Positions 5,761-22,135 of a DNA stretch of 64,000 nt are shown here, piece after piece. The stretch comes from an uncultured Synergistales bacterium (GTDB lineage Bacteria; Synergistota; Synergistia; Synergistales; JAFGMB01), in NCBI GenBank assembly GCA_964410915.1, contig CAYPIU010000005.1:10834-74833 (forward strand), read 5' to 3'. Position numbers and translations under genes: made by a program. How positions within the stretch are numbered: the first letter of the stretch is position 1; each line of letters begins with the position of its first letter. The notes beneath the pieces are model-generated. The model did no database searches, had not been told where the DNA came from, and worked only from the letters and a program-made list of their open reading frames with translations.

Positions 5761-5782
5761 TCTCTACGTTTTTCCTGCAGAT

Positions 5783-5820
5783 TAATCTTTATATGCAGGA
5801 TTTCCTGCATATAAAGATTA
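5783..5820. terminator. 18-bp-stem hairpin upstream of rpiR
   Basis: taatctttatatgcagga-tt-tcctgcatataaagatta. Could be an operator rather than a terminator. Confidence 0.5.
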
Positions 5821-5860
5821 CCCAAATTAACTGTCTTTGTCAATGATCATTTCAAATATC

Positions 5861-5900
5861 AAAAAGGCAGGGGACCTGAACTCAGGCTCCCTGCCTTTTT
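5861..5900 (-). terminator. Rho-independent terminator of the dehydrogenase operon
   Basis: aaaaaggcagggga...tccctgccttttt stem with A/T tails, just downstream of the E3 stop. Confidence 0.75.
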
Positions 5901-5934
5901 GACAAGTACATTTTTTTATTTAACGGATAAGGTG

Positions 5935-7707
5935 TTACTTACGCGGAGGAATGTGTACTGCAATGTTATTTACATCCAGTGCAGCCTCTCCAAGCGCCTC
6001 TCCTATGGTTGGATGAGCATGAATTGTAGTGACTATCTCGTCGATGGTGGCTTCAAGACGGAGTGCAAGAGCTGCTTCAACGATCAGGTCTGTAGCTCTT
6101 GGCCCAATGATATGAACTCCCAGGATCTCATCATACTTCTCATCAACAACGAACTTGATGAATCCTTCGGTTTCATTCATGATTAGACTTTTGCCATTAG
6201 CTATAAGGGGGAATTTTCCGATCTTTACATTATGCCCCTTTTCAACTGCCTGTTCTTCTGTCAATCCAGCCCAGGCAATTTCAGGAGACGTATAAACTGC
6301 TCCAGGATTAGTCTTGTAATCCATTACGGTCTTATGCCCCATAATATTTTCAGCAGCAACCTCACCTTCTCTGGATGCTACATGAGCAAGCATTATAGGA
6401 CTGCAGCAATCTCCAATGGCATATATACTATCTACACTTGTTTTCATTTTCTTATCGATAATGATCTTTGCCCTGTCCATCTTAACCCCGGTGTTTTCAA
6501 GTCCAAGCGTGGATGTAGAGGGTTTCCTTCCAACAGAAACAAGCACCTTTTCGGTTATGATCTCCCTGTCTCCTTCGGACATCTTGACTTCTGATACCAG
6601 AGATCCATTTTCTTCTCTGAAACGGGTTACCTTCGAAGACGTAAGAATTTCAACACCCTTCGCAGCAAGTACACTTTTGAGTACTGCTACGATTTCTTTG
6701 TCAGTATTCGGAAGGATCTCAGGCAACATTTCAACAATTGTCACCCTGGTACCAAGGCTGGCAAAAATTGATGCAAATTCAACACCAATTACTCCGCCTC
6801 CAACGATAGTCATTGAATCAGGAACTTTATCAAGGCTCAGAGCTTCATTACTTGTAATGACACCCTTCGAGTCGATCCCCGGTACAGGCGGGACTACGGG
6901 CTCTGATCCGGCGGCTATAATACAGTAATCCGGAGAAAGGACCTGATCTTTTCCGGAACTGCTGACCCTGATCTCGGAATCAGAAATAAAAGAAGCATCT
7001 CCTTCAAGCATTTTTACTCCGTTTGAAGAAAGAAGAGATCTTACGCCTCCAACCAGCTGAGCAGTAACCTGTTCCTTTCGTTTCATCAGGGCAGACCAGT
7101 CAACTTCTACATTGTCTGCTTTTAAACCTATCATTTCGCCCTCTTTAACTGCGTTAAAAAGTTCAACTGTATGAAGAAGGACCTTTGTCGGAATACAACC
7201 GACGTTGAGACATGTGCCGCCATAGTATTTTCTGTCGACAATAGTTACGTCAGCACCAAGTTGTGCCGCCCTTATCGCTGAAACGTAACCACCGGGACCT
7301 GCACCTATTACCAGTACTGAAGTACCTTCTCCTATTCCAGCCTCTGACATTTCAGAACTTTCAACCGGTTTTTTCTCAGGTGAAGCTGAAGTCTCACTTT
7401 CAATCTTTACTGGCTTTTCCTCAGTCACAGGTTCTTCAGCGGCAGGAGATGAAGTTTCTACTTCTTCTCCTGGTGCTGCTATAATTCCTACTGCATCTGA
7501 AACAGCAGCCGAACTTCCAGCAGGGACCAGGATCTTCGCCAGGACTCCGCTTTGCTCTGCTTCAACTTCAAAGGTAAGTTTATCAGTTGCAACAACAAGA
7601 ATGATCTCACCCTTCTCAACGGGATCACCCTCCTGTTTTTTCCACTCGGAAACTGTACCCTCGGTCATTGTAAGACCAAGTTTAGGCATTGTAATTTCGT
7701 TAGCCAT
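5935..7707 (-). CDS. lpdA: Dihydrolipoamide dehydrogenase (E3) with N-terminal lipoyl domain
   Basis: Lipoyl motif VATDKL, FAD motif VIGAGPGGY, redox disulfide GGTCLNVGCIPTK, C-terminal HAHPTIGE. Start set at ATG 7707 (MANEITMPK). Confidence 0.95.
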   Translation of the reverse strand: MANEITMPKLGLTMTEGTVSEWKKQEGDPVEKGEIILVVATDKLTFEVEAEQSGVLAKILVPAGSSAAVSDAVGIIAAPGEEVETSSPAAEEPVTEEKPVKIESETSASPEKKPVESSEMSEAGIGEGTSVLVIGAGPGGYVSAIRAAQLGADVTIVDRKYYGGTCLNVGCIPTKVLLHTVELFNAVKEGEMIGLKADNVEVDWSALMKRKEQVTAQLVGGVRSLLSSNGVKMLEGDASFISDSEIRVSSSGKDQVLSPDYCIIAAGSEPVVPPVPGIDSKGVITSNEALSLDKVPDSMTIVGGGVIGVEFASIFASLGTRVTIVEMLPEILPNTDKEIVAVLKSVLAAKGVEILTSSKVTRFREENGSLVSEVKMSEGDREIITEKVLVSVGRKPSTSTLGLENTGVKMDRAKIIIDKKMKTSVDSIYAIGDCCSPIMLAHVASREGEVAAENIMGHKTVMDYKTNPGAVYTSPEIAWAGLTEEQAVEKGHNVKIGKFPLIANGKSLIMNETEGFIKFVVDEKYDEILGVHIIGPRATDLIVEAALALRLEATIDEIVTTIHAHPTIGEALGEAALDVNNIAVHIPPRK

Positions 7708-7808
7708 TACTAAAATATTCCTCCTCAAAAATAGGCTTGTTAATCCGGTTTTATGAATATCCGGGCGGGGTTCTTACAGGGGGTAAACGCACCGCCCGGA
7801 GAAAAGTT

Positions 7809-9305
7809 TTAGACCAGAAGCAGATAGGGATTTTCTATAATTTCACGTATCCTGGCCAGGAATTTAGCTGCATCTGCACCATCAAGGATTCTGTGATCTG
7901 CGGTCAAACCAATATTAGACATTGGTCTGATCACAATTTCCCCGTCTCTAACTACAGGCTTTTCAGTTATGGCGTTAACAGCAAAGATACATGCTTCAGG
8001 TGGGTTGATAATTGGAGTAAAGTCCTGCATTCCAAACATTCCAAGATTGGTTATAGTAAATGTGCCTCCCTGCATTTCGTCCATGGAAAGCTTTCCTGTT
8101 CTTGCTTTTTCCACTAATTCATCTGTAGCTGAAGCAATTTCCTGAAGATTTTTGCTCTGAACTGCCTTTACATTAGGTACAACGAGCCCGCCTTCAATAG
8201 CTACTGCAAGACCAATATTAACGTCTGAATGCAATATATACTCGTTTGATGCTTCATCGTAGCTTGCATTCGCCATCGGATAATCCTCCAGCGCTCTGCT
8301 GCAGACCTTCATTAGAATATCGTTAAAGGATAATTTTGCCCCTCCAGAAGATACCTGATCCTTTATTCGTTTACGGAAAGAAATGATCTCCGAAAAGTCC
8401 ACTTCCATATTGAAGACCACAGATGGAATTGTATTTGAACTCTGGGTCATTCTCTCTGCGATGACTTTCCTCATTGGTGAAAGAGGAACTCTCTTATCAC
8501 CTGTCACGGTCTTCTCAGAAAGAGCCTTTCCCTTAACTGTTTCCGGCTTTTCTGATACTTCTTCTGCACCAGCGGCTCTGAGTACATCCTCTTTCATTAT
8601 CCTGCCGCTGGTCTCAATGGAAGCAAGGTCCACACCAAGATCTTCGGCCATTTTTGATGCAACAGGAGAAGCTTTTATCCTGCCTTCAGAAAGATCTTCC
8701 AGATATCTTAAAACATCGGCTTTGACTGTACGTCCTTCGGGGCCTGTACCGGTTACAGCAGTAATATCAACATTATTATCTCTGGCTGTTTTTCTTGCTG
8801 AGGGTGAAGCCTTGAACATCACGGCTTCTTTCATTACATCTTCTTTTACGATCCTCTCACCTGGACCGGAACCTTTAATTTCAGAAAGAGAAAGCCCGAA
8901 TATTGAAGCCCATTTTCTCGCAAGAGGTGAGGCTTTTACCGGACCTTCCTGGTGCTTTACTTCGGGTTTCTCCGAGACCTCAGTTTTGACTTCCGCTACT
9001 TCCTCTTTTTCAGGAACTTCTTCCTCTGGCTTTGTGTCAGCCGGAGATGCTGTTTCGATCTTTTCCCCAGCCTGACCGATAACAGCAAGGTTCTCCCCTA
9101 CGGGAACCGACTGACCTTCTTCGACCAGCACCTGGAGCAAAGTTCCATCATCGGGAGCTTCTACATCATATGTAAGTTTATCTGTTGCAACTACAAGAAT
9201 TATGTCACCTTTTGTAACGGTATCGCCCTCACTGACATTCCAGCTTGAGATTAAACCTTCAGTCATGGTCAATCCCAGCTTAGGCATTGTAACGTAAGTT
9301 GCCAT
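7809..9305 (-). CDS. acoC: Dihydrolipoamide acyltransferase (E2) of an acetoin/2-oxoacid dehydrogenase complex
   Basis: Lipoyl VATDKL, three E3-binding (KASP..) repeats, GTFTITNLG, catalytic DHRILDG. Confidence 0.92.
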   Translation of the reverse strand: MATYVTMPKLGLTMTEGLISSWNVSEGDTVTKGDIILVVATDKLTYDVEAPDDGTLLQVLVEEGQSVPVGENLAVIGQAGEKIETASPADTKPEEEVPEKEEVAEVKTEVSEKPEVKHQEGPVKASPLARKWASIFGLSLSEIKGSGPGERIVKEDVMKEAVMFKASPSARKTARDNNVDITAVTGTGPEGRTVKADVLRYLEDLSEGRIKASPVASKMAEDLGVDLASIETSGRIMKEDVLRAAGAEEVSEKPETVKGKALSEKTVTGDKRVPLSPMRKVIAERMTQSSNTIPSVVFNMEVDFSEIISFRKRIKDQVSSGGAKLSFNDILMKVCSRALEDYPMANASYDEASNEYILHSDVNIGLAVAIEGGLVVPNVKAVQSKNLQEIASATDELVEKARTGKLSMDEMQGGTFTITNLGMFGMQDFTPIINPPEACIFAVNAITEKPVVRDGEIVIRPMSNIGLTADHRILDGADAAKFLARIREIIENPYLLLV

Positions 9306-9377
9306 GGGAAATCCTCCTCAACAAATCATTATCCGGAAAGGGGAATCCCTTCCAGCAGTCTGATCATTTATCTAAAA

Positions 9378-10433
9378 CTATTCTGAAGCCCAGGGATCAA
9401 GAATGATCTTGCATGCCCTGCCTTCCTTAAGCAATTCAAAACCCTTGTCAAATTTTGAAAGGGGCATTTTATGAGTAACTATCGGCGCAAGCTTTAACGA
9501 TCCTGAATCTATTAGATTCTCCATGACGGTCCATGTCTTGAACATTTTTCTTCCATGGATACCTTTTATCTTTGCTTCCTTGAAGATCACCTCTGGTCCA
9601 AGATCGATGGTGAACGGATCTGATGGAAGGCCGACAAGAGCAACATTTCCGCCTTTTCGCAGAATCTTGAATGCACCTGCAATGGCAGTGGTATTACCTG
9701 AAGCATCTATGAAGGCATCTACTCCAACATTTTCTGTCAGATCAAAAATCCGCTCGGAGAGATCCTCTTTCATGGGATTAATGCAGACATCTGCACCCAC
9801 ATCTCTGGCAACAGACAGTCGTTCTTCGGAAACATCGCTCGCAATTATCTTAGCTGCACCCAGTGCCCTGAGAGCTGTTATCGAACCCAGACCTATAGGA
9901 CCTGCTCCTATTACAGCAACAACAGATCCTGCGGGATCAACTTCCATTGCAGAACGCACACTTGTTCCAAGAGGTTCCATCATGGCTGCATATTCCCTTG
10001 GTATACTTTCAGGGATCTTTCTTGCACATATAGCAGGAAGAACCGTATATTGGGCAAAACAGCCATCACAGTGAACACCAAAAAGCATCATATTGGCACA
10101 TATGTGCTGCTGACCATTAAGACACTGGTAACATCTTCCGCAAGGACCATGGGTCTCTCCAGCTACATAATCACCCTCCGATAACCCCGTTACACCATCG
10201 CCCAGACTGACCACTTTGCCGCTGAACTCATGTCCCATGATCTGAGGTAATGACTTTACTGCACCCTGAGCCCATTTATTCCATTCATATATATGTACAT
10301 CTGTTCCGCAGATCGCAGTAGCAAGTACTTTTACAAGGACTTGCCCTGATCCTGGTGAAGGGATCGGGGCATCTTGAAAACTCCCCCCGAAAGAAGGACC
10401 AGTCTTGACTACAGCCTTCATCATTTCATCCAT
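9378..10433 (-). CDS. tdh: Zn-dependent dehydrogenase, L-threonine 3-dehydrogenase-like
   Basis: ICGTDVHIY, GHE, structural Zn CGRCYQC..C, GAGPIG, and Tdh-type GIHGRKMFKTW. Start set at ATG 10433 by RBS spacing. Confidence 0.8.
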   Translation of the reverse strand: MDEMMKAVVKTGPSFGGSFQDAPIPSPGSGQVLVKVLATAICGTDVHIYEWNKWAQGAVKSLPQIMGHEFSGKVVSLGDGVTGLSEGDYVAGETHGPCGRCYQCLNGQQHICANMMLFGVHCDGCFAQYTVLPAICARKIPESIPREYAAMMEPLGTSVRSAMEVDPAGSVVAVIGAGPIGLGSITALRALGAAKIIASDVSEERLSVARDVGADVCINPMKEDLSERIFDLTENVGVDAFIDASGNTTAIAGAFKILRKGGNVALVGLPSDPFTIDLGPEVIFKEAKIKGIHGRKMFKTWTVMENLIDSGSLKLAPIVTHKMPLSKFDKGFELLKEGRACKIILDPWASE

Positions 10434-10452
10434 TGAAAACACTCCTCCAGGA

Positions 10453-11211
10453 CTAATTGTCCCTCATTATTCCACCATCGACATCGGTTATCTCGCCTGT
10501 AACGTGACTTGCAAAATCAGAAGCAAGGAAGAGAACCATATTTGCAATATCCTGTGGTTGTCCAAATTTTTTAAGAGGAACTCCCTGTAAGATCCTTTCC
10601 CTGTTTTCTTTGGAACAACCTGATAACATATTTGTCTCTATCGGTCCCGGGCATATAGCATTGGCATTTATACCGTAAGGTCCGGCTTCCCTGGCAATTC
10701 CCTTGGTAAGCGCAATAACACCAGCTTTTGATGTACCATAAATCGTATTACCAAAGAATCCCCCGCCCTTCTTGCCGGCGATGGACGCGATATTTACTAT
10801 CTTGCCGTATTTTCGACCTATCATTCCGGGAAGAGCTGCAAAACAGGTGTTGTATACTCCCTTGAGATTAACTGCCATTATCTTGTCCCATTCTTCCTGG
10901 GTAGTCTCAAGGAATGGTTTTGGAGAAACTATGCCTGCATTGTTGACAAGTATATCTATACTTCCCCAACTTGCTTCGACCTCGGCGATAACTTCCTGAA
11001 CCATTTCCAGTTTTGATACATCTGCCTTGAAGACCATGGACTTTCCACCGCTCTTCTCGATCTCGGCTTTTGTCTCTCCTGCTCCCTCAACATTCATGTC
11101 TATTATGGCTATATTAGCACCGCAAGATGCTAAAGTAAGTGCTATAGAACGGCCTATGCCCTGTGCTGCTCCAGTAACAAGAACATTTTTACCATTGAAA
11201 TCAAACTTCAA
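10453..11211 (-). CDS. Short-chain dehydrogenase/reductase (FabG-like SDR)
   Basis: TGAAQGIG, NNAG, YGTSK catalytic motif. Confidence 0.92.
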   Translation of the reverse strand: MKFDFNGKNVLVTGAAQGIGRSIALTLASCGANIAIIDMNVEGAGETKAEIEKSGGKSMVFKADVSKLEMVQEVIAEVEASWGSIDILVNNAGIVSPKPFLETTQEEWDKIMAVNLKGVYNTCFAALPGMIGRKYGKIVNIASIAGKKGGGFFGNTIYGTSKAGVIALTKGIAREAGPYGINANAICPGPIETNMLSGCSKENRERILQGVPLKKFGQPQDIANMVLFLASDFASHVTGEITDVDGGIMRDN

Positions 11212-11246: not shown

Positions 11247-12014
11247 TCAGTCTCTGACTATTCCTCCGTCTACATCAAAGATCTCACCTGTTACATGACC
11301 TGCCATATCAGAAGCCAGGAAAACGACAACATCGGCAATTTCTCTGGGTTCTCCGTATCTTTTCAAAGGGGTACCCTCTATAATGAGTTTTTTCTGCTCT
11401 TCAGGGATGGAATTACCCATGACCGTGCTTATAACACCCGGGCAGACTGCATTCGCATTGATCCCACTGGGACCGCCTTCTCTTGCAAGACCTTTGGTGA
11501 GTCCTATAACACCTGCTTTTGATGCTGCATAAATAGCAGTTCCACGAAATCCGCCTCCAAGTTTTCCGGCGATAGAGGCTATATTAATAATTTTTCCTGA
11601 ACCATTCTTTATCATTTCCGGGAAAACTGCATTACATGTATTGAAACATCCCTTCAGGTTTATTCCTATAACACGCTCCCAGTCATTTTCATCACATTCA
11701 GCAAAGGGAGTGGGAAGAGTTACTCCAGCATCGTTGACCAGTACGTCCACCCTGCCATATTTTGAGAAAATCTCAGTGAATGCTTTCTTAACATCACTGT
11801 GATCAGAAACGTCCAGGGGAAGAAAGTCAACTTTCTTCCCCTGGGCATTAAGTTCCATGGCAGTCTGACGGCCGGCTTCTTCAAGAATATCAAGGATCAC
11901 ACATGTTGCTCCCGATTCACAAAAGGACTCGACTATAGCTCTGCCTATCCCCCTGCTTGCACCAGTTACAACGACTATTTTCCCTGAAAGATCTATTACT
12001 GCCGGTCCATTCAT
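11247..12014 (-). CDS. Short-chain dehydrogenase/reductase (FabG-like SDR), paralogue of the neighbouring gene
   Basis: TGASRGIG, NDAG, YAASK. Start set at ATG 12014 (MNGPAV). Confidence 0.92.
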   Translation of the reverse strand: MNGPAVIDLSGKIVVVTGASRGIGRAIVESFCESGATCVILDILEEAGRQTAMELNAQGKKVDFLPLDVSDHSDVKKAFTEIFSKYGRVDVLVNDAGVTLPTPFAECDENDWERVIGINLKGCFNTCNAVFPEMIKNGSGKIINIASIAGKLGGGFRGTAIYAASKAGVIGLTKGLAREGGPSGINANAVCPGVISTVMGNSIPEEQKKLIIEGTPLKRYGEPREIADVVVFLASDMAGHVTGEIFDVDGGIVRD

Positions 12015-12015
12015 T

Positions 12016-12504
12016 TTATTCACCCTTCTCGTAGATATTAAAAAGAGGGAATTCAGTTTCTTCGTCAAATGCTCTCAGAATATCAACATTATCAAAACCT
12101 TCTACAAGAACTTCCATTGTGCTCATCACCGGATTACCACCTTCTACAAAGTGAGCACCATGAAAGCCCTGTTCAGGATCAGAGATAACGCCATGAAGAT
12201 GAACAGCAGTCTCGCCTGTATCTGAGAACTGGCCTATCATTCCACTTCCGCATATAAACTCGAGAGGCCCGTCGATATCTACAGGATCCCCGTACTTGGC
12301 ATTCATTTTTGTACCCGGCGCAGGAAGGGCCCATACAAATCTGGCTTTAGAAAGACTGCCGTGCATGGCAGTTATACATCCTGCTGTAATATCATTATCT
12401 TTACAAACCTTAAGTACTCCGGCCAGAAGATCTGTACCAGGCATCAGGCGAGCAACAACTTTTTTTCCTGTTACCTGTACCGAAGAAGTTCTTACATCAG
12501 ACAT
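12016..12504 (-). CDS. DUF296 / PPC-domain protein
   Basis: ARLMPGTDL, GSL, LEF, VHLHG...GAHF and TMEV pattern typical of DUF296. Confidence 0.85.
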   Translation of the reverse strand: MSDVRTSSVQVTGKKVVARLMPGTDLLAGVLKVCKDNDITAGCITAMHGSLSKARFVWALPAPGTKMNAKYGDPVDIDGPLEFICGSGMIGQFSDTGETAVHLHGVISDPEQGFHGAHFVEGGNPVMSTMEVLVEGFDNVDILRAFDEETEFPLFNIYEKGE

Positions 12505-12519
12505 TTAATACCCTCCGTT

Positions 12520-13500
12520 CTAAAACATACCTTTTATTGCATTAGCAATTTTTTCGGGGGTTACCCTGTAAGCCTGTTCAAGAGGTTTGGCAAAAGGCAC
12601 CGGGGTAAATGGAGCTCCAACTCTTGTAATCGGAGCATCAAGGTAATCAATGCCTTCTTCAGCTACAATAGCGGAAATTTCAGCTCCTACTCCGCCCTGT
12701 TTTACAGCTTCATGTGCGATAGCAAGTCTGCTGGTTTTAGCTATTGATTCAAGGATCGTCTCTTTATCAATAGGTGAAATAGTTCTCAGATCGACACATT
12801 CTACACTGATGCCGTCTTTTTCAAGCATCTCTGCTGCCTGCAGGCAATGGTTGAAACAAAGTGAATAGGATACAAGGGTTACATCCTTACCCTCTTTAAC
12901 AACCTTCGCCTTTCCTATGGGAGTAAAGAATTCTTCTTCAGGAACCGGGCCTGACATTCTGAACAGAGACTTGTGCTCAAAATAGACTACAGGATTATCA
13001 TCTCTTATGGCTGACTTGAGCAAACCTTTGGCATCGGCAGGATTTGAAGGAATTACAACCTTGAGTCCGGGAACATGCATGAACCAGGATTCTATGCTCT
13101 GGGAGTGCTGGGCAGCTGCCTGGTTAATAAGTCCGTCAGGAGCCCTGAGTACCATTGGGACCGTCTTCTGACCACCGAACATGTAATGGATCTTGGCCAT
13201 CTGATTATAGATCTCATCCATACAGACACCCATAAAGTCCGCAAAATGCATATCGGCTATTGGACGCATACCGGCAAGGGCTGCACCTACGCATGCTCCC
13301 AATATGGCTGTTTCTGTTATAGGTGTATCCTTGACCCTGTCAGATCCGAACTGATCAGGAAGACCCTTAAACTGGCCGAATATTCCACCCTGTCTTGCGA
13401 TATCTTCCCCCATGATAAATACATTGCTGTCGCGGCTCATCTCCTCCTGCATTGCTTCAAGAGTAGCCTGGGAAAATGTAATTTCTCTCATATTATTCAC
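12520..13500 (-). CDS. acoB: TPP-dependent dehydrogenase E1 beta subunit (acetoin/pyruvate dehydrogenase type)
   Basis: MGEDI..GG, DTPITE, AQHSQS, DLRTISP motifs. Confidence 0.93.
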   Translation of the reverse strand: MNNMREITFSQATLEAMQEEMSRDSNVFIMGEDIARQGGIFGQFKGLPDQFGSDRVKDTPITETAILGACVGAALAGMRPIADMHFADFMGVCMDEIYNQMAKIHYMFGGQKTVPMVLRAPDGLINQAAAQHSQSIESWFMHVPGLKVVIPSNPADAKGLLKSAIRDDNPVVYFEHKSLFRMSGPVPEEEFFTPIGKAKVVKEGKDVTLVSYSLCFNHCLQAAEMLEKDGISVECVDLRTISPIDKETILESIAKTSRLAIAHEAVKQGGVGAEISAIVAEEGIDYLDAPITRVGAPFTPVPFAKPLEQAYRVTPEKIANAIKGMF

Positions 13501-13505
13501 CGCCC

Positions 13506-14510
13506 CTATACATAAAGGTCCTGATATAATTCGGAAGGATCAGGCTCTGGTGATTCTGTTGCAAATTTTATAGCCTCATCAACTTCTTTAACAACCCGGT
13601 CTTTGATCTCGTCAAGCTCTTTCCTGTCCATAACCTTTTCCTCAAGGACTCTCTGTTCGAAACGTACTATTGGATCATTTTCATCGGAGACCTTCTGTAC
13701 CTCTTCCTTGGTCCTGTATTTTTCAGGATCTCCTACGAAATGTCCTTTAATACGATAGGTCTTGCATTCAAGAAGGGCAGGACCCTCTCCATTGCGCATT
13801 TTTTCAACAAGCTGTTTTGTAGCTTCATATACTGCGAATACGTCATTGCCGTCCACTATTACGCCAGGCATATCATAACCCTGGGCCCTGTCTGCAATAT
13901 CTTCCACAGATGTAGTTGTCAGGTAAGGAGTGGTTGAAGCCCACTGGTTATTTTCACAGACAAAAAGAACTGGCAGATCCCATGCAGATGCCATGTTGGC
14001 CGCTTCATGGAAGGTTCCGCGGTTTGATGCTCCATCTCCAAAGAAAACTACTGAAATATCTTTTCTTCCAAGCATCTTGCACGCCAGACCTGCACCGGTT
14101 GCGAGAGTATAGCCACCGCCGACAATGCCGTTTGCTCCAAGCATACCCACGCTGAAATCCGCAATATGCATGGAACCGCCCTTACCTTTGCAGAAACCTG
14201 TTTTTTTCCCGAATATCTCTGCCATCATCTTTTTGAGATCCGCACCCTTAGCTATAGTATGGCCATGACCTCTGTGAGTGGTCTCGATATAGTCATTCTT
14301 CGTAAGGTTACTCATAATACCAGTACCTGTGGCTTCTTCACCTATATAAAGGTGAACAAATCCGGGTATCTCGCCTGCAAGGAACTTTTTCTCAATGTTG
14401 GTCTCAAAATACCTGATTTTCACCATTGTTTCGTAAAAATGTTCAAGAAGCTCCTTGTCATATTTTTTGATAGAGGAAGGCCCCTTTTTTCTTACGGGTT
14501 TAGCACACAT
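13506..14510 (-). CDS. acoA: TPP-dependent dehydrogenase E1 alpha subunit (acetoin dehydrogenase type)
   Basis: GFVHLYIGEEA, THRGHGH, GKGGSMH, TPP motif GDGASNRGTFHE...NN, TYRIKGH. Confidence 0.93.
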   Translation of the reverse strand: MCAKPVRKKGPSSIKKYDKELLEHFYETMVKIRYFETNIEKKFLAGEIPGFVHLYIGEEATGTGIMSNLTKNDYIETTHRGHGHTIAKGADLKKMMAEIFGKKTGFCKGKGGSMHIADFSVGMLGANGIVGGGYTLATGAGLACKMLGRKDISVVFFGDGASNRGTFHEAANMASAWDLPVLFVCENNQWASTTPYLTTTSVEDIADRAQGYDMPGVIVDGNDVFAVYEATKQLVEKMRNGEGPALLECKTYRIKGHFVGDPEKYRTKEEVQKVSDENDPIVRFEQRVLEEKVMDRKELDEIKDRVVKEVDEAIKFATESPEPDPSELYQDLYV

Positions 14511-14555
14511 TTAAATACCTCCTTGAATTTAGAGTTCCAGCTAATCTATATGCCA

Positions 14556-15875
14556 CTAGGTTACGATAGATGGAAGCCACGTAACTATCTGAGGCCAGAT
14601 AATGCAAAGTGTAAGCGCTATGGCCTGCAGAATTACGAAGGGCGCGACTCCCCAATAGATTTCTTTTGTTGTAACACTTGGTGGTGCAACACCCTTGACG
14701 AAGAATATCGCATAGGCAAATGGCGGCGTAAGGAAAGACATCTGCAGATTAATGCATATGAGGAGAACAAAGTAAAGTGGATCGATCCCGAGATGTATTG
14801 CAATGGGGAGGAAGATCGGGACTACTATGTAGACGATACCGATCCAGTCGAGGAACATGCCCATTATGAAAACAGTGAACATCATTACAAAGACAACTCC
14901 CCACTTTCCAAGCCCAAGCCCGAGGAGAGCAGATTCTATAAGAGCTCCTCCACGCATGAAAAGAAACACTGATGTAAACATGGATGCACCAACAATTACA
15001 AAGAACACCATGGATGTTACCTTAATTGTCTCGTAAACAGCATCTTTTACAGTTTTGAGATTAAGTTTCCTGTAGAGAAGGGCGATTATAACTGCTCCAA
15101 GTCCTCCAAGGGCGGATGCCTCTGTTGGAGAAGCTATGCCTAAAAGAATAGAACCAAGAACAGCAAAAAGCAGACCAAGAATGGGAAGCATATAAACTAA
15201 GGTCTGAACGAGAAGCTGCTTGTTTGTACTCTCGGCTCTTTCCTCATCGGAAATCGAAGGAGCGATCGATGGCTGTAACCAGCATCTGATAACAATATAA
15301 GCGATATACAGAGAGGCAAGCAGAAGACCAGGCATAAGTGCGCCTGAAAACAATTTGGCAACTGAAAGATTTGTCATGGGTCCAAGTACGACCAGCATGA
15401 CACTCGGGGGGATCAGTATACCAAGGGTCCCACCCGCACAGACAACACCTGTTGAGAGTCCATGATCATAATTCCTCTGCAACATAGCCGGGAGTGCCAT
15501 AAGGGTCATTGTAGTGACCGATGCAGCTATTACTCCTGTGCAGGCAGCAAAAAGGGTACTGATTATTATCGTTGTAAGAGCAAGACCGCCTTTAATAGGA
15601 CCAAGCAGCTTATACATTGTATTAAACAATTTTTCGGCTGCTCCGCTTTTCTCAAGGATACAGCCCATGAATACAAAAAGCGGAACGGCTATCAGAATCT
15701 CGTTCTGCATCGTCCCAAAAATATTCTGCATATACAGGGACAACATCGCGGGGCCCCTGTAATACACGCCAAAAGTAACCCCAAGGAACATCATGGCAAA
15801 TGCAAGGCGAATACCTGACATAACCATGATTATAAGGATAACTAACATTGAAACAGCAAGGACTTCAGGACTCAT
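14556..15875 (-). CDS. dctM: TRAP transporter large permease DctM
   Basis: AVPLFVFMG, GTLGILIPPS, SPTEA, SFLTPPF motifs. Confidence 0.93.
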   Translation of the reverse strand: MSPEVLAVSMLVILIIMVMSGIRLAFAMMFLGVTFGVYYRGPAMLSLYMQNIFGTMQNEILIAVPLFVFMGCILEKSGAAEKLFNTMYKLLGPIKGGLALTTIIISTLFAACTGVIAASVTTMTLMALPAMLQRNYDHGLSTGVVCAGGTLGILIPPSVMLVVLGPMTNLSVAKLFSGALMPGLLLASLYIAYIVIRCWLQPSIAPSISDEERAESTNKQLLVQTLVYMLPILGLLFAVLGSILLGIASPTEASALGGLGAVIIALLYRKLNLKTVKDAVYETIKVTSMVFFVIVGASMFTSVFLFMRGGALIESALLGLGLGKWGVVFVMMFTVFIMGMFLDWIGIVYIVVPIFLPIAIHLGIDPLYFVLLICINLQMSFLTPPFAYAIFFVKGVAPPSVTTKEIYWGVAPFVILQAIALTLCIIWPQIVTWLPSIVT

Positions 15876-16375
15876 TCCGATTCTCCTTTAATAGCTTTCT
15901 GCAGATTTCTGTAAAGTTCCACAAATCCCTGCATGAACATCATTCCAAAACCGATGGGAATAACTGTTTTAACAGGACCAGATGGGAATCTCCAGAGTGT
16001 GGTAGAGAGCCTCTCTCCATGTGACCAGGCAAATGCTGCAAAATCAACTGACTTCCAGGTCAGCAAACCCATAATGGGAAGAAACAGGATAGCGAAAAAG
16101 AAGACGTCAAACCATGCCTGGTATTTTGCGGGAAGAGAACTGAAAATAATGTCGATTCTGACGTGTCTCTTATGTACCATTGTATAGGCTCCTCCAAGAA
16201 GGAACATGGCACTGAATAACATCCAGGCTGTATCGTATACCCAGTCAGTAGGACTGTTCAAAACATATCTTATCAGGACTTCGTAAACCACAACGGCATT
16301 GAGGGGAATTACAAGCCATGCACCGAATATACCTACTTTTTCATTGAACTTTTCTATGATATCTAAAAGTCCCAT
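15872..16375 (-). CDS. dctQ: TRAP transporter small permease DctQ
   Basis: Four TM segments, YEVLIRY, HVRIDI. Confidence 0.92.
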   Translation of the reverse strand: MGLLDIIEKFNEKVGIFGAWLVIPLNAVVVYEVLIRYVLNSPTDWVYDTAWMLFSAMFLLGGAYTMVHKRHVRIDIIFSSLPAKYQAWFDVFFFAILFLPIMGLLTWKSVDFAAFAWSHGERLSTTLWRFPSGPVKTVIPIGFGMMFMQGFVELYRNLQKAIKGESE

Positions 16376-16401
16376 AGATTCAGATTACCTCCTATGCCAG
16401 A

Positions 16402-16427
16402 GGTTGGCCCGAACTTTCGGGCCAACC
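16402..16427. terminator. 11-bp-stem hairpin between dctP and dctQ
   Basis: ggttggcccga-actt-tcgggccaacc; the usual position for stabilising the solute-binding-protein mRNA or partial termination. Confidence 0.55.
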
Positions 16428-16466
16428 AGGCTTTTCAGTTAACATAGAATAATAATTTTGTAATTA

Positions 16467-17510
16467 TTATTTATCGAACTTAGTAAAGTTGTAGAAGTCC
16501 ACATAGGATTCGAGGAACTGCTTCTGTGATTCCCAAACCTTCTTGAACATTGGATCTTCCTCGGATTTCTCATCAAGGATCTCGTAGGAAAGCTTGAGAG
16601 CCTTCATCTGGTCTTCTTTGGAGAGCTTGTTGATCTCCACACCAGCTTCCTTGATCTGATCAAAGGCCGTACTACTATCAACATAGAACTGGGAATAACC
16701 CTCGAAAGAAGCGGCTATAGCTGCATTTTTGACAATTGCTTTCAGATCGTCAGGAAGAGCTTCCCATTTTGCCGGGTTGATGACGAGCTGAAAAATGTTG
16801 GAACCCATGTGGATCGGGGGACCCATAAGGTAATCGCAGACTTCATGAAGTCCAAGTCCTACGTCCATGCTCGGGAATGCAAATTCAGCTCCGTCGATAA
16901 CGCCTCTGCGGAGAGAAGGTACTACCTCGCCGCCGGGAAGAAGGACAACGGAAGCTCCAAGTTTCTGCCAGAGCTCCATGCTCAGACCAGCGGAACGGAC
17001 CTTAAGACCCTTGATATCATCCAGGGTCTTGACCGGCTTAGTGGTCCAGATACCTGATTCGGGGGGGGTAAGACCGAGGGGAAAGACCTTTATGGCATCG
17101 CCGTACATCTCATCGGCAAGGGCCTGGCCTTCTCCGCCATACATCCATACGAGAAGATCATTTGTCTCAGTAACACCTGCGGGGAGGGTATAGAAAAGAT
17201 CGCCGGCAGGATACTGCCCCTTCTGCCAGGCGGGAGTATTCTGTCCACAGTCAAGGACACCGTCACGGACTGAATCGAAAACTGCGGGTCCGGGGACGAT
17301 CTCGCCTGAACCGTGAACTTCTATTACAAGACGTCCACCACTCATGGCTTCGACTTTTTCAGCCCACATGGGGAAATATGCACCCACAGGGAGTTTTACA
17401 GGGAAGCAGCTCTGTCCAATCCATTTGTAGCTGTCTGCAGCGACAGCAGACATGGCCATTGTAAGTACCATGACTACAGCTATTGCGACCAATAAAGCTT
17501 TTTTCTTCAT
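16467..17510 (-). CDS. dctP: TRAP solute-binding protein DctP, TakP-like (monocarboxylate/2-oxoacid subfamily)
   Basis: Signal peptide; AEKVEAMSGGRLVIEVHGSGEIVP, DSVRDGVLD, KGLKVRSAG, LPGGEVVPSL. Confidence 0.9.
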   Translation of the reverse strand: MKKKALLVAIAVVMVLTMAMSAVAADSYKWIGQSCFPVKLPVGAYFPMWAEKVEAMSGGRLVIEVHGSGEIVPGPAVFDSVRDGVLDCGQNTPAWQKGQYPAGDLFYTLPAGVTETNDLLVWMYGGEGQALADEMYGDAIKVFPLGLTPPESGIWTTKPVKTLDDIKGLKVRSAGLSMELWQKLGASVVLLPGGEVVPSLRRGVIDGAEFAFPSMDVGLGLHEVCDYLMGPPIHMGSNIFQLVINPAKWEALPDDLKAIVKNAAIAASFEGYSQFYVDSSTAFDQIKEAGVEINKLSKEDQMKALKLSYEILDEKSEEDPMFKKVWESQKQFLESYVDFYNFTKFDK

Positions 17511-17640
17511 TACTGCGAACCTCCTTAAGTTCTTAATAGATAGATGTGAAAACTGTAAACCTTAAAACCAGCTTCCTTATACCCCAAAATCACCACCTCT
17601 CCTCAAAATCCACCTCTTCCGGGTAAACTTTTAAAAGGGA

Positions 17641-18270
17641 CTACATAAGCCTAGTTTTACCTCCTTTAAGGTGGATATCCATCACTCTAAGTGCATTAAC
17701 AACATCTTTCTCTTTAAGAGCCTTGACTATTTGTGTATGTTCTTCATGAAAAAGCCGCATATTTTCCCGGGACTGAAGCATCTTGATATTCAGGGAATAC
17801 AGGCGATCTCTCAGGTTTGACATATACTCGATTATCATTGGATTTTCGTAAAATCTGAAAAGAGCCTCATGAAATTCTCTGTCACAACTCAGATAACTCG
17901 CAGCATCTCCTTCCTGGATACATTGCCCCTGACGCTCAACAATATTTTCAAGTCCCTTTATCTGATCCGATGTTAAATTGCCAGCAAGTTCCCTGATCAC
18001 AAACTCCTCAATAGCGATCCTAAGGTCATAGATATATCTGAATTCATTAACGGAAGTCTCGTTAACAACTATCCCCTTGTTGGGTACTATCTTTAAAAAA
18101 CCCTCCATTTCCAACTGCTGGAGAGCTTCTCTGACTGGAGTCCTGCTCATTTTTAATCGATTTGAAAGGGAATTCTCTGAAATATGGTACATATCCAGAA
18201 AATGCTGATCAGCTATAAGAGCCTTGATTTTATAGTATGCCTGTTTCTTCTTGGTTTGTTTTTTAAGCAC
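17641..18270 (-). CDS. GntR-family regulator (HTH + FCD)
   Basis: ISENSLSNRLKMSRTPVREAL HTH, DREFH..L, EH..I. GTG start after AGGAGG. Confidence 0.92.
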   Translation of the reverse strand: MLKKQTKKKQAYYKIKALIADQHFLDMYHISENSLSNRLKMSRTPVREALQQLEMEGFLKIVPNKGIVVNETSVNEFRYIYDLRIAIEEFVIRELAGNLTSDQIKGLENIVERQGQCIQEGDAASYLSCDREFHEALFRFYENPMIIEYMSNLRDRLYSLNIKMLQSRENMRLFHEEHTQIVKALKEKDVVNALRVMDIHLKGGKTRLM

Positions 18271-18292
18271 AGGTAATCCTCCTGGAGGTAAC

Positions 18293-18335
18293 TTGCATAC
18301 AGGTTGAATACACTTCTTTGTATTGAAAGATACAT
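18293..18335. promoter_or_regulatory. Candidate GntR operator: TTG(C/A)ATACA repeats
   Basis: ttgcataca (18293) and ttgaataca (18304) as direct repeats, followed by tgtattgaaagataca, immediately upstream of gntR. Confidence 0.4.
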
Positions 18336-18459
18336 GTTACAAAAATATCTGTCAAGGGGCATTTGAATTGTCGGTAATGCAAGAAAATTATCTTGTTTTT
18401 AAGTAAATACTGACGTTAATAATTTCACTTGCCTTGCTCCCCGAAACTAAGAAATGGGT

Positions 18460-18488
18460 ACAGAGCAGGATATTTATTCCTGCTCTGT
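18460..18488. terminator. Hairpin downstream of the second DUF296 gene
   Basis: acagagcagga-tatttat-tcctgctctgt. Confidence 0.5.
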
Positions 18489-18713
18489 TGATCATTGAAA
18501 TTACAGACTGTCTGTCACAGGTAGTGGGATATGAGGTTTTAAGCTGTTTGACTGCCAATGCAACTTACAGCTTTCCGGTAAGATCTCATTATCTTTTCTG
18601 CTGTAATGCCGGGAAGGTCATGTATTGCTTACAGAGCATCTCCTTGCTCCACTTTCACTCGACTATTAACTGCAAACAATCTTCGGGTATCTTAGACTTT
18701 GAAAAGGATGTAT

Positions 18714-19193
18714 TTATTTCCCTGATATGTCAAATCTGATGAACTCGGTTTCTTCATCATATGATTTGTGCAGTTCAACAGAGCCAAACCCCTGGATAAC
18801 TATCTCCATTGTTGCCAAAACAAAAGTTTTACCATCATCCACTATATGACCTGCAATTGGCTCCATTTCATCAGTACCCACAGTACCATGCAGATGAAGG
18901 CTTATCTCTCCCTTTTCAAGTCCGATCATCCCCTGAGCTCCTATCAGTTCAAGCGGGCCCTGGATCATAATGGGCTCAAAATACCTTGCCCCTATTTCAC
19001 TTGTAGGATCCGGTGTAACACAGACAAGAGTTGCAGCTTTAAGGCTTCCAAGCATAGTAACGATCGTTCCTGAAAAGATATTTTTCTCTTTGCAAACCTG
19101 TCTTATACCTTCAAAAAGCTCTACGCCATGAGAAAAACGGGCGACAATGGTTTTGGAAATGTCAGTCTCAAATGCTTCAATTTTAGGATCCAA
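18714..19193 (-). CDS. DUF296 / PPC-domain protein (second copy)
   Basis: ARFSHGVEL, GSL, LELIG, LHLHG...AGHI, TMEI. TTG start at 19193 after GGGAGG; the ORF track starts at 19265. Confidence 0.85.
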   Translation of the reverse strand: MDPKIEAFETDISKTIVARFSHGVELFEGIRQVCKEKNIFSGTIVTMLGSLKAATLVCVTPDPTSEIGARYFEPIMIQGPLELIGAQGMIGLEKGEISLHLHGTVGTDEMEPIAGHIVDDGKTFVLATMEIVIQGFGSVELHKSYDEETEFIRFDISGK

Positions 19194-19293
19194 TACCTTA
19201 CCTCCCAATACGTATAAGGATAATTCCCTGGGATATAGATTATAGAGAAACCGGGAATTTATCAATCCCGAAACTAAGTATCAAGGAACACAG

Positions 19294-19761
19294 CTACTTT
19301 TTGTTTTCTCCCAGGTTTAATTCTCTGTATATCTGATTAAGTTTTCTTCCTATATCAAAATACTCCTTCTCCGTTTTCCTCAGGGATACAGCATCCTGCC
19401 TGTAATCCTTTTTTGCATACTTATCTCCATTGCTTCGCTGCTTTAATTTAATTGAAATATCCTCAAGCTGAGCAACTGCCCTCATAAAAACGCTTATATA
19501 GGCTCTTAGAGTTATCAGAAACTGGCCTTCCCTTTCTTTTCCATCAGGTTTAATAGACCTGATACTATCCTTGGCCTGTCCAAGTTCATCCTCCATTTCC
19601 TGCAGCCTTTCAAAATGCGCCTGGTAATTTACAGGCCTGAAAATCCCGGGAATGGGAATTATCTTTCTGAAGGAAGGCTTGAAAATATCTTCTTCTATAT
19701 TCACATATTCTTTAACAAGACCATTAACCTTCATTGCCACAGAAGAAACTTTCTGATCCAT
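19294..19761 (-). CDS. Hypothetical helical protein (155 aa)
   Basis: Long ORF with GGGGT RBS and coiled-coil-like composition; no family recognised. Confidence 0.7.
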   Translation of the reverse strand: MDQKVSSVAMKVNGLVKEYVNIEEDIFKPSFRKIIPIPGIFRPVNYQAHFERLQEMEDELGQAKDSIRSIKPDGKEREGQFLITLRAYISVFMRAVAQLEDISIKLKQRSNGDKYAKKDYRQDAVSLRKTEKEYFDIGRKLNQIYRELNLGENKK

Positions 19762-19988: not shown

Positions 19989-20984
19989 ATGGATCATCTT
20001 GAAAAACGTATCGCTCTCGGCAACCTGCCTACTCCGATACAAAAAATGAATAACATAAGCAGATTTCTCGAAGGACCAGACATTTACATTAAGCGGGACG
20101 ATCTCACTGGAGTCGCCTTTTCCGGAAACAAGGTCAGAAAACTCGAATTTTGCGGAGCCTTTGCTCTGGAAAAAGGATATGATGTTCTGATCTCCTGCGG
20201 AGGTATCCAGTCAAACCACGCAAGGGCGACTGCCGCTGCAGCTTCAAAACTTGGGCTTGGATGTCACCTGGTTTTAGGTGGGAAAAAACCTGTGGATACA
20301 GAGGGAAATCTTTTCCTGGATCAGATACTTGGAGCTTCGATCACTTTTGCCGATGGATATGGTCTTAACGAGATGGAAGATCTGATGGAAGAAATTGCTG
20401 AAGATTACAGAACAAAGGACTTCAAACCATATATCATTCCCCTGGGAGCATCCGATGCAAGGGGATCTCTTGGATATATAAAAGCATCTATGGAAATGAA
20501 AGAACAGTTTGATAACCAGGGATTCGAACCGGATCATATTATATGCCCCACGGGTTCGGGTGGAACTCTTTCAGGACTCCTGGCAGGCAAAGATCTTTGT
20601 GGAATATCATCAAGAATAACGGGTTTCAGCGTAGCCTTTGATTCCATGTCAGTAAAGTCAAAAGTCATGAGTGTCCTTGAAGAGATCAAGGGAAGTTATT
20701 TCCCCGAATTGAACATTGAAGAAATTAATATTAACGTCAATGACAGCTATATCGGGGAGGGATATACGAAAACCACCATGGAACAGCTGAAAATGATCAA
20801 AGAAGTTGCAAGCAGGGAAGCTCTCCTTTTTGATCCGACTTATACCGGCAAAGCTTTCTATGGAGTTACCGAAGAAATTCGCAATGGGAAATATCGAAAA
20901 GGTGAAAAAATCCTCTTCATTCATACTGGGGGAGTTTTTGGACTATTTCCTTATAAAGAAAGATTTAGAGAAGATATTTTCTGA
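19989..20984 (+). CDS. dcyD: D-cysteine desulfhydrase family PLP enzyme
   Basis: IKRDDLTG..FSGNKVRKLEF, QSNHARATA, GSGGT, DPTYTGK (Thr, not the Glu of ACC deaminase), HTGG. Confidence 0.88.
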   Translation: MDHLEKRIALGNLPTPIQKMNNISRFLEGPDIYIKRDDLTGVAFSGNKVRKLEFCGAFALEKGYDVLISCGGIQSNHARATAAAASKLGLGCHLVLGGKKPVDTEGNLFLDQILGASITFADGYGLNEMEDLMEEIAEDYRTKDFKPYIIPLGASDARGSLGYIKASMEMKEQFDNQGFEPDHIICPTGSGGTLSGLLAGKDLCGISSRITGFSVAFDSMSVKSKVMSVLEEIKGSYFPELNIEEININVNDSYIGEGYTKTTMEQLKMIKEVASREALLFDPTYTGKAFYGVTEEIRNGKYRKGEKILFIHTGGVFGLFPYKERFREDIF

Positions 20985-21025
20985 TTTAACAGATGTTGTA
21001 AAGGTTCAGACAAGGAGGTAGTATC

Positions 21026-22135
21026 ATGCTTCGCCAGACCTGGATGGAAATATACACGGATAATCTTCGCTCCAATTACAGGGAAGTAAGAAGGCTCATC
21101 CCTGAGGATTGCAAAATAATCGCAGTAGTAAAAGGTAACGCCTATTCCCATGGAGCAGTAGAAACAGCAAAGGTTTTCAGATCTGAAGGATGCCAGTGGT
21201 TCGCAGTAGCAACCCCTGAAGAAGCCCTTGAACTGAGATGCAACGGAATAAAAGAAAAAATACTTGTAATGGCAGCATCTACTGCTGAAGCCGCAGAAGC
21301 ATATATAACTAATGACATCTCTGCAGCATGCGGAGATTTCAGATTTTTAGACATTATGAACAGAGCAGCCCTGAAGACAGGGAAAAAAGCCAGGGTACAC
21401 ATAAAGTTTGATACAGGACTGAGCAGAACGGGATTCTTTGAAACAGATATCCCGAAACTCACACAAAAACTCAGATATTCCGAAGGAATTGTAATGGAAG
21501 GCACCTTCACCCATTTTGCAACTGCTGACGAGACAAATCCGGATTACACAAAATGGCAGTACTCGAGGTTTAAAAATGCAATGTCAGATATGGCCGCAAA
21601 AGGTTTCCCATCAGATTTTCAACACGTCTGCAACAGCCCTGCCACAGTCAACTTCCCGGAATACAGCCTTGATGCGGTCCGGCCTGGAAACCTTCTTTAC
21701 GGACTACCCAGCGGAAGATGTTCAAGAACAGTCGCTCTTAAACCCGCATGCGCATTTAAGACCCGAATTGCAGTTATTCGTGAACTTGAAGCAAGAACAG
21801 GCGTAGGTTATGGCCTGAAATATATGACAAGAGGCAGGCAGAGAACAGGTATTCTCCCTGTAGGGTTTTATGACGGAATGACGAGGCTGCTGTCTGGGAA
21901 AGCAGAGGTACTTGTAAGGGGACGCAGGGTCCCGGTGATAGGAAATATATGCCTTGACCAGACTATAATTGACCTGACGGAAGTTCCCGAAGCAAGAGAG
22001 GGTGACGAAGTTGTGCTTATAGGAAGACAGGGCGAAGAAGAAATATCAGTAAAGGATGTAGCCGATAAGCTGGGGTCTATAGTCACTCAGGTACTAAGTT
22101 TCATAACAGCGAGGGTACCCCGAGTCTATATATAA
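21026..22135 (+). CDS. alr: Alanine racemase family (fold type III)
   Basis: AVVKGNAYSHG (PLP Lys), HIKFDTGLSRTG, FTHFATAD, VRPG, GVGYG (catalytic Tyr), GNICLDQ. Confidence 0.92.
   Translation: MLRQTWMEIYTDNLRSNYREVRRLIPEDCKIIAVVKGNAYSHGAVETAKVFRSEGCQWFAVATPEEALELRCNGIKEKILVMAASTAEAAEAYITNDISAACGDFRFLDIMNRAALKTGKKARVHIKFDTGLSRTGFFETDIPKLTQKLRYSEGIVMEGTFTHFATADETNPDYTKWQYSRFKNAMSDMAAKGFPSDFQHVCNSPATVNFPEYSLDAVRPGNLLYGLPSGRCSRTVALKPACAFKTRIAVIRELEARTGVGYGLKYMTRGRQRTGILPVGFYDGMTRLLSGKAEVLVRGRRVPVIGNICLDQTIIDLTEVPEAREGDEVVLIGRQGEEEISVKDVADKLGSIVTQVLSFITARVPRVYI

Follow-up and report, generated by a model that had tools for sequence, protein, structure and literature searches.

Here, we consider two small proteins of the PCC/DUF296 family (PF03479) encoded on the minus strand of a 64,000-nucleotide stretch of DNA from an uncultured Synergistales bacterium (contig CAYPIU010000005.1), together with the acetoin-dehydrogenase-like operon that contains one of them and is preceded by the other. 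The whole stretch is referred to below as the window, and the proteins as copy 1 (12016..12504, 162 amino acids [aa]) and copy 2 (18714..19193, 159 aa). Copy 1 matches PF03479 with 65.8 bits (E 5.5e-18) and copy 2 with 71.3 bits (E 1.1e-19), against a Pfam cut-off of 25, and they are 41% identical to one another across 148 residues (E 1e-38). Both retain a histidine triad of the form HxH...H, which reads H102-L-H104-G ... G-A-H118 in copy 1 and H-L-H-G ... A-G-H in copy 2. The open reading frame (ORF) of copy 2 can be extended to a TTG at 19265; its homologues begin at the Met at 19193. Copy 1 is described here as a putative metal-dependent enzyme on the strength of Pfam, residue conservation, an AlphaFold2 (AF2) model, Foldseek, and its isoelectric point (pI), whereas copy 2 was placed by Pfam, its identity to copy 1, a tree, and synteny.

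Read along the minus strand from 19761 down to 5935, the locus consists of a 155-aa ORF, copy 2, a gap of 444 bp (18271-18713), and then a tightly packed operon running from gntR to the gene for E3. The operon order is GntR/FCD regulator, tripartite ATP-independent periplasmic (TRAP) transporter (DctP, DctQ, and DctM), E1-alpha, E1-beta, copy 1, two short-chain dehydrogenases/reductases (SDRs), a medium-chain dehydrogenase/reductase (MDR) resembling threonine 3-dehydrogenase (Tdh), E2, and E3. Copy 1 starts 15 bp downstream of the E1-beta stop codon, a single base separates its own stop from the ATG of the first SDR (TAAAATG), and it appears to be translationally coupled to the enzyme genes on either side. 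An initial annotation, made from the letters alone, had called both ORFs DUF296/PPC proteins with a retained HxH...H motif and had set copy 1 between acoB (E1-beta) and the SDR pair, all of which holds. It had also set copy 2 upstream of gntR. Copy 2 does lie there, but the best sigma-70-like promoter match in front of that gene (TTGACA-17-TATCTT, 18327..18355, minus strand; a consensus match only) falls between the two, and copy 2 would therefore be outside the gntR transcript, in a two-gene unit of its own.

All operon genes are on the minus strand. The first is the GntR/FCD-family regulator (17641..18270; PF00392 and PF07729), followed by a TRAP solute-binding protein of the DctP family, which its Pfam and PDB matches assign to the TakP/lactate-binding type (16467..17510), the small permease DctQ (15872..16375; PF04290 in homologues), and the large permease DctM (14556..15875; PF06808 in homologues). 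E1-alpha, predicted to be thiamine-diphosphate dependent and of the acetoin-dehydrogenase type (13506..14510; PF00676), scores 379 bits on the pyruvate dehydrogenase E1-alpha model TIGR03182, under its cut-off of 394 bits, and is 54% identical to the E1-alpha of an Enterococcus plasmid aco cluster. E1-beta (12520..13500) carries PF02779 and PF02780. Beyond copy 1 lie SDR A (11247..12014, with the start taken at the ATG at 12014; PF13561/PF00106) and SDR B (10453..11211; a Pfam assignment, 51% identical to SDR A), and then the Zn-dependent, Tdh-like MDR dehydrogenase (9378..10442). The operon closes with the E2 dihydrolipoamide acyltransferase (7809..9305; PF00364, PF02817, and PF00198 in homologues) and the E3 dihydrolipoamide dehydrogenase (5935..7728; PF00364, PF07992, and PF02852 in homologues). 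E3 has an N-terminal lipoyl domain, as does AcoL of Clostridium magnum. All of E1-alpha, E1-beta (jointly E1ab), E2, and E3 of an acetoin-dehydrogenase-like system are encoded together in the window.

The strongest evidence in this analysis comes from the gene neighbourhood of copy 1 relatives. Among 5.8 billion proteins, close relatives form only 14 clusters, and an exhaustive search at E <= 1e-3 returned 413 clusters. Relatives with 33-86% identity to copy 1 adjoin acetoin-type E1ab and E2 genes in ten different gene orders, and the E1ab beside them is 56-92% identical to that of the window. E3 is also present wherever the sequence of the locus reaches beyond E2. A transporter accompanies every such cluster with enough flanking sequence, nine times of the TRAP type and once of the major facilitator superfamily (MFS). 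The clusters, which we call PCC-aco clusters, occur in Synergistota, Peptococcaceae, Anoxynatronum, Firmicutes UBA1065, Vescimonas, Anaeromusa, Desulfobacula, and metagenome-assembled genomes (MAGs) labelled "Deltaproteobacteria." The conserved core is a transporter, PCC, and E1/E2, with E3 where the locus is long enough. The metabolic placement proposed at the outset, beside an acetoin-type dehydrogenase, has therefore held up across phyla, with E1 and a transporter kept across the different gene orders.

The individual orders are worth setting out. In Synergistales it is GntR-TRAP-E1ab-PCC-SDR-SDR-MDR-E2-E3, in some cases followed by LplA, and in one locus (L003) GntR-TRAP-PCC-SDR-SDR-MDR-E1ab-E2. 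A Peptococcaceae MAG has sigma54 activator-E1ab-PCC-TRAP-E2-E3, locus L031 has GntR-E1ab-PCC-TRAP-E2-E3, and Anoxynatronum buryatiense has sigma54 activator-E1ab-TRAP-PCC-E2-E3. The arrangement TRAP-PCC-E1ab-E2, with or without E3, is found in both a Firmicutes UBA1065 MAG and a "Deltaproteobacteria" MAG, and on a short contig of Desulfobacula only PCC and, after it, E1-alpha can be seen. Vescimonas has FCD-TRAP-dehydrogenase-metallo-beta-lactamase (MBL) hydrolase-PCC-E1ab-E2-E3-LplA. Anaeromusa, with the MFS transporter, has AcoR-like activator-MFS-PCC-E1ab-E2 plus lipoylation genes. The SDR and MDR genes are particular to Synergistales, and the association of PCC is therefore with the E1 complex.

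Two of these neighbourhoods hold further genes of some interest. In the Anaeromusa locus (L032, 12840-18492), PCC-E1ab-E2 is followed by a lipoylation set (LplA-like genes, LipA, and a GcvH-like gene), and also by a CMD-family gene and a GlcD/GlcF-like pair of FAD and Fe-S oxidases. On the Variovorax paradoxus chromid CP063167.1 (L034, 6902-14423), a LysR gene comes first, and after it stand two tandem DUF296 genes and the genes for an SDR, a thiolase, an AMP-dependent ligase, and a TRAP system. Here DUF296 occurs in another kind of metabolic setting, one that depends on CoA and has no E1. A cluster in Sulfitobacter (L035) is similar to the one in Variovorax, lacks DUF296, and is built around a solute-binding protein like that in PDB entry 4p8b, to which we return below.

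AcoABCL systems are known from Clostridium magnum, Pelobacter carbinolicus, and Bacillus subtilis. The window operon resembles such a system, to judge by its gene content, with an importer and a PCC gene added. E1-alpha, E1-beta, E2, and E3 are common to both, and relatives of the window operon carry lipoylation genes and, in loci L019, L026, and L032, AcoR-like sigma-54 regulators. The window regulator, in contrast, is of the GntR/FCD rather than the sigma-54 AcoR type, and the window dehydrogenases are Tdh-like and SDR enzymes with no clear butanediol dehydrogenase among them. The Enterococcus cluster mentioned above comprises a sigma-54 regulator, lpdA, E1ab, E2, and 2,3-butanediol dehydrogenase; unlike the window operon, it lacks both a transporter and PCC.

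The Tdh-like dehydrogenase deserves comment, since it bears on what the operon might consume. It scores 391 bits on NF003808, which it passes (cut-off 380), 400 bits on TIGR00692, which it fails (cut-off 458), and 344 bits to archaeal Tdh structures; its identity to an annotated 2,3-butanediol dehydrogenase is only 30%. There is no 2-amino-3-ketobutyrate CoA ligase gene nearby, and its substrate is therefore probably a threonine-like 3-hydroxy acid. Two other explanations of the operon were considered. A plain 2,3-butanediol/acetoin cluster was down-weighted, given that the MDR is so clearly Tdh-like and that the transporter and regulator indicate a carboxylate. A threonine-to-aminoacetone route as the core function was judged unlikely because the PCC-aco clusters of other phyla have no Tdh-like gene.

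What, then, is the PCC protein? Copy 1, alone of the two, was modelled with AlphaFold, on an alignment of 46 relatives (A2), giving a predicted local distance difference test score (pLDDT) of 95.3 and a predicted TM-score (pTM) of 0.88. When this model is compared with the PDB by Foldseek, the matches fall into three clean tiers, namely DUF296 structures, acetolactate decarboxylases (ALDCs), and noise. The first tier consists of seven solved DUF296 proteins (2nmu, 2h6l, 2hx0, 2p6y, 3htn, 3hwu, and 2dt4), with TM-scores normalized to the query (TMq) of 0.67-0.76 and E-values of 3e-10 to 1e-8. The second consists exclusively of ALDCs, every entry, at E 6e-3 to 2e-2, probability 1.0, and TMq 0.44-0.52; the copy 1 model covers only part of the ALDC chain (TM-score normalized to the target, TMt, 0.32-0.38). 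ALDCs (AlsD/BudA, PF03306, EC 4.1.1.5; 4BT2-4BT7, 5XNE, and 1XV2) are thus the sole fold outside DUF296 that the model matches. The initial annotation had placed DUF296 in the ALDC fold superfamily, and the outcome agrees with that placement. A similar search of viral structures (BFVD) added one item, a DUF296 protein of the giant virus Terrestrivirus (A0A3G4ZMM0), which has the same fold at TMq 0.74 and 26% identity.

The solved DUF296 proteins are products of structural genomics (AF0104, 2H6L; PH0802, 2DT4; VCA0587, 2P6Y; Salmonella, 2HX0/2NMU; BT_1116, 3HTN; and 3HWU). They share the Pfam family, the fold, and the His triad with copy 1, and 2H6L is titled "metal-containing protein AF0104" in the PDB. 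Against the A2 profile they score E 4e-19 to 3e-8 at an identity of just 15-23%, and none has an assigned function. The copy 1 subfamily differs from them in an insertion at about residues 60-73, which includes the conserved Y71, and in two conserved strands at the C-terminus that carry R144 and D147.

Within the subfamily, the His triad is invariant in the 46 relatives of alignment A2. Among 127 diverse representatives, H102 and H104 are conserved in 100% and H118 in 94%; position 131 is acidic (Glu/Asp) in 94%, and T129 (90%), R19 (86%), D147 (86%), C34 (85%), and R144 (80%) are nearly as constant. The full set of further conserved residues in copy 1 is R19, C34, Y71, E82, T129, E131, R144, and D147, and copy 2 keeps every one of the residues conserved in the copy 1 subfamily. 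A pattern of this kind looks typical of an active site. The catalytic Glu and Arg set of ALDC comprises Glu65, Arg145, and Glu253 (Bacillus brevis numbering), for which R19, E131, R144, and D147 are candidate counterparts; it is conjecture that D147, in the C-terminal extension, stands in for Glu253.

How close is the relationship to ALDC? An hhalign comparison of the PCC profile with an ALDC alignment gave a single aligned stretch, which places H102/H104/H118 on the zinc triad H173/H175/H186 of B. subtilis ALDC (a sequence 100% identical to 5XNE; 5XNE numbering) at E 0.37, a value that is not significant. In this alignment, the HxH...GGH-type triad is at the corresponding position in the sequence, and copy 1 has three more residues in the hairpin that links the second His to the third. 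In Pfam, PF03479 is the only match of either copy at E <= 0.01, with no match to PF03306. The link between PCC/DUF296 and the ALDC superfamily accordingly holds, on the model, as a structural one only. Copies 1 and 2 had been suggested to be ALDC-like Zn enzymes: the relation by fold is sound for the copy 1 model, membership of the ALDC family fails on both sequence and architecture, and the two may still work like ALDC.

The genetic settings also differ, that of copy 1 being catabolic (transporter and acetoin cleavage) and that of ALDC biosynthetic (alsSD/budABC). Canonical ALDC is absent from the window and from 35 loci, 520 kb in total. Plasmid-borne ALDC genes are almost all from Pantoea, Lactococcus, and other bud/als producers; their contexts were left unopened, and no replacement of PCC by ALDC in a TRAP-aco cluster was found.

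The transporter binding proteins offer a view of the likely nutrient. The best PDB matches of the window DctP are 7ug8 ("ketoacid-binding protein"), 2zzv (the Thermus lactate-binding protein), and 2hzk (TakP). It retains the arginine of an LKVR motif, as read from the sequence, which is the carboxylate-binding residue of this family by analogy with SiaP Arg147, and is predicted to be of the alpha-keto/alpha-hydroxy-acid type. For the binding proteins of L031, L010, L026, L019, and L024, on the other hand, the best PDB match is 4p8b, at 35-48% identity; in L031, the figures are 312 bits and 48% identity, with the next match at 146 bits. The structure 4P8B, of Ralstonia eutropha H16_A1328, is said to stem from the screen of Vetting et al. 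2015. A review credits that TRAP-ligand study with the discovery of 2-acetolactate as a TRAP ligand (PMC5812351), and H16_A1328 is named in a list of TRAP systems in the supporting information of a preprint. If the ligand reported for 4P8B, given below, is right, the minimal clusters could constitute a full pathway, consisting of acetolactate import, decarboxylation by PCC, and acetoin cleavage by the Aco-like complex.

Our favoured reading, to which we give a probability of roughly 40%, is that copy 1 uses a metal to decarboxylate 2-hydroxy-3-oxo acids and so supplies the Aco-like complex with an acyloin. We observed which family the proteins belong to, how copy 1 is predicted to fold, which residues are conserved, and how the genes are arranged here and in relatives; from these we infer metal binding, decarboxylation, and the identity of substrate and product. 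On this reading, both genes would encode small, acidic, metal-binding (probably Zn) PCC/DUF296 enzymes and not DNA binders. The TRAP transporter would import a small alpha-hydroxy or alpha-keto carboxylate. In the Synergistales version, oxidation of this compound by the two SDRs and the Tdh-like dehydrogenase would give an acetolactate-type 2-hydroxy-3-oxo acid; the Tdh-like enzyme would turn a 2-substituted 3-hydroxy acid into the 3-oxo acid, and the SDRs would plausibly do likewise for other stereoisomers. In other phyla, where the clusters are simpler, the compound taken up by the transporter would already be the 2-hydroxy-3-oxo acid. The metal site formed by the three His of copy 1 would then bind the acid, and CO2 would be lost through a metal-bound enediolate, as in ALDC; the proposed chemistry (2-hydroxy-3-oxo acid to acyloin, metal-assisted) would be the ALDC reaction by analogy. 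The neutral acyloin, acetoin or a close analogue, would finally be cleaved by E1/E2/E3 to an acyl-CoA and an aldehyde. Copy 2 has the same site, and would probably carry out this type of reaction on a different isomer or substrate.

A number of points weigh against this proposal, and should be taken seriously. The first concern the protein itself. The PCC profile (A2) retrieves no ALDC from PDB sequences at E <= 10, and the hhalign result falls short of significance, as noted. Copy 1 is a single domain of 162 aa, compared with two domains and about 235-260 aa in ALDC, and it therefore has no equivalent of the ALDC N-terminal domain, which supplies Glu65 and Arg145. Moreover, the His triad is common to the whole DUF296 family and not particular to the copy 1 subfamily, and one close relative of copy 1 (P0171) stands alone beside a two-component system.

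The remainder concern the substrate. Acetolactate is unstable and unusual as a nutrient, and a Tdh-like enzyme would fit other beta-keto acids better, for instance 2-amino-3-oxobutanoate or 2-hydroxy-3-oxobutanoate, whose decarboxylation products are poor Aco substrates. The window DctP is just 24-26% identical to 4p8b and is instead of the TakP/lactate type. The ligand bound in 4P8B is reportedly (S)-2-acetolactate, and the acetolactate clue from the transporters depends on that report. Finally, a 38%-identical 4p8b-like binding protein occurs in Sulfitobacter in a setting of thiolase, CoA-ligase, and SDR genes, with no PCC or aco genes.

Among the alternatives, the one that survives best keeps the same metal site and assigns it another enediolate chemistry, that of an acyloin racemase, isomerase, or tautomerase; an acetoin racemase, for example, would open both enantiomers to a stereospecific E1. 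To our knowledge, acetoin racemase is an orphan activity. The idea gains from the fold and the His triad, both of which ALDC shares; in the second half of the ALDC reaction, as is established, an enediolate is protonated to acetoin. It also gains from the position of PCC, which immediately borders E1-alpha or E1-beta in most architectures, and from the AcoR-like sigma-54 regulators of L019, L026, and L032. It sits less well with the transporter: a cell could profit from a racemase whether or not it had one, yet a carboxylate-type transporter accompanies PCC in every cluster seen, and the classical aco cluster, which has no transporter, has no PCC either. The GntR/FCD regulators and Arg-containing binding proteins indicate an anionic substrate, and the invariant Arg19 and Arg144 would suit a carboxylate. 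On balance, we regard the racemase and its kin as unlikely.

The same tight linkage of PCC to E1 genes across phyla could instead reflect a non-catalytic partner of E1, that is, a ligand- or metal-binding subunit, chaperone, or sensor that serves assembly, protection, or substrate delivery. Aco clusters do carry accessory genes without an assigned role, such as AcoX, and no enzyme activity for DUF296 was found reported in the literature that we searched. However, the invariant set of three His, an acidic residue, and Arg across the 127 representatives is more typical of catalysis, and PCC is also found away from E1: in L003 it is flanked by TRAP and SDR genes, and in Variovorax it belongs to a CoA-dependent cluster with no E1. 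This explanation therefore strikes us as quite unlikely.

DNA binding, the function with which the family is routinely labelled, is very unlikely for these proteins; as a transcription factor controlling the operon, the stand-alone copy 2 would be a better candidate than copy 1. A further point against our favoured decarboxylase is that LmiA (Z4267), a DUF296 protein of Escherichia coli O157:H7, is reported to bind the LEE1 promoter by electrophoretic mobility shift assay, chromatin immunoprecipitation-qPCR, and footprinting (PMC7667037). In addition, copy 2 is upstream of a regulator gene and adjoins a basic 155-aa protein, and relative P0171, with its two-component neighbour, could be read in the same way. 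LmiA is likewise a PF03479 member, and its authors also point to three conserved His that probably bind Zn; it differs in being a stand-alone island gene, whereas the window PCC proteins are strongly acidic and copy 1 lies among enzyme genes. The pI is 4.74 for copy 1 and 4.73 for copy 2, with a net charge of about -11 to -12 (about 24 acidic and 12-13 basic residues in each), and most relatives are acidic too. Neither sequence has an AT-hook (RGRP) or a helix-turn-helix family match in Pfam, and in plant AHL proteins it is established that the AT-hook, not the PPC domain, binds DNA. The operon already has its regulator, GntR in the window and GntR or sigma-54 in relatives, and the apparent translational coupling of copy 1 between enzyme genes also speaks against a regulatory role.

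If the decarboxylase reading is taken one step further, the PCC subfamily would be a minimal single-domain analogue of ALDC which, together with a TRAP or MFS importer and E1/E2/E3, forms an undescribed route, shared by anaerobes of several phyla, for scavenging and fermenting acetolactate-type 2-hydroxy-3-oxo acids or dihydroxy acids oxidized to them. We advance this broader claim tentatively and with some doubt. We found no description of a PCC-aco cluster in the open-access literature searched, nor any paper there that links acetoin dehydrogenase with a TRAP transporter.

The value of the proposal lies in the breadth of the family. PF03479 is distributed across bacteria, archaea, and plants and is labelled "DNA-binding" as a matter of routine, and yet the domain itself has no established biochemical function. 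A conserved tie to an acyloin-cleaving thiamine complex and a carboxylate importer, one that resists rearrangement, provides a concrete hypothesis that can be tested cheaply. If true, it would provide the first enzyme function for PCC/DUF296 and correct an annotation that runs through the family; it would add a second, far smaller protein design for metal-dependent beta-keto-acid decarboxylation; and it would show that Synergistota, Clostridia, Negativicutes, and sulfate reducers have a new route for fermenting hydroxy acids or acetolactate. Should the decarboxylase reading fail, the conserved cluster still marks a catabolic pathway without an assignment.

Copy 2 and its surroundings can be described more briefly. 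In a maximum-likelihood tree, copy 1 falls in a well-supported Synergistota clade and copy 2 in a separate one; copy 2 is therefore an old paralogue and not a recent duplicate. It is preceded by the gene for the 155-aa protein (19294..19761, minus strand), which is basic (pI 9.4) and, from alignment A4, is predicted to be a four-helix bundle (AF2, pLDDT 83). This protein has no match in Pfam or NCBIfam, and a fold search gave no significant match, the best being 2ap3 at E 0.03. The pair of 155-aa ORF and copy 2 is kept in all Synergistales relatives seen, and in the window the unit sits between the aco-type operon and a divergent PALP/alanine-racemase-like pair.

In three relatives, a gene for a 385-aa dehydratase of the GD_AH/UxaA type lies on the opposite strand between the second PCC gene (PCC2) and gntR (L008, 8538-9695; L009, 7124-8281; and L011, 1480-2936), and in L011 it adjoins a 99-aa ORF without a family match. 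The dehydratase gene and this ORF presumably resemble the sulfolactate sulfo-lyase SuyAB. The window has no GD_AH/UxaA-type gene between copy 2 and gntR, only the 444-bp gap.

The Synergistales relative L010 has a PdxA-family dehydrogenase and a second GntR gene beside PCC2 (5169-9442). There, the 4p8b-like TRAP system replaces the TakP-like one, and the PCC protein within the operon is nearer to copy 2 (50%) than to copy 1. The divergent pair of the window (19989-22135, plus strand) comprises a PALP enzyme of the DcyD/CuyA-like kind and an alanine-racemase-like gene. It may be a D-amino-acid or cysteate-type module, and it is syntenic in all of the Synergistales relatives seen (L008-L012, L023, and L027).

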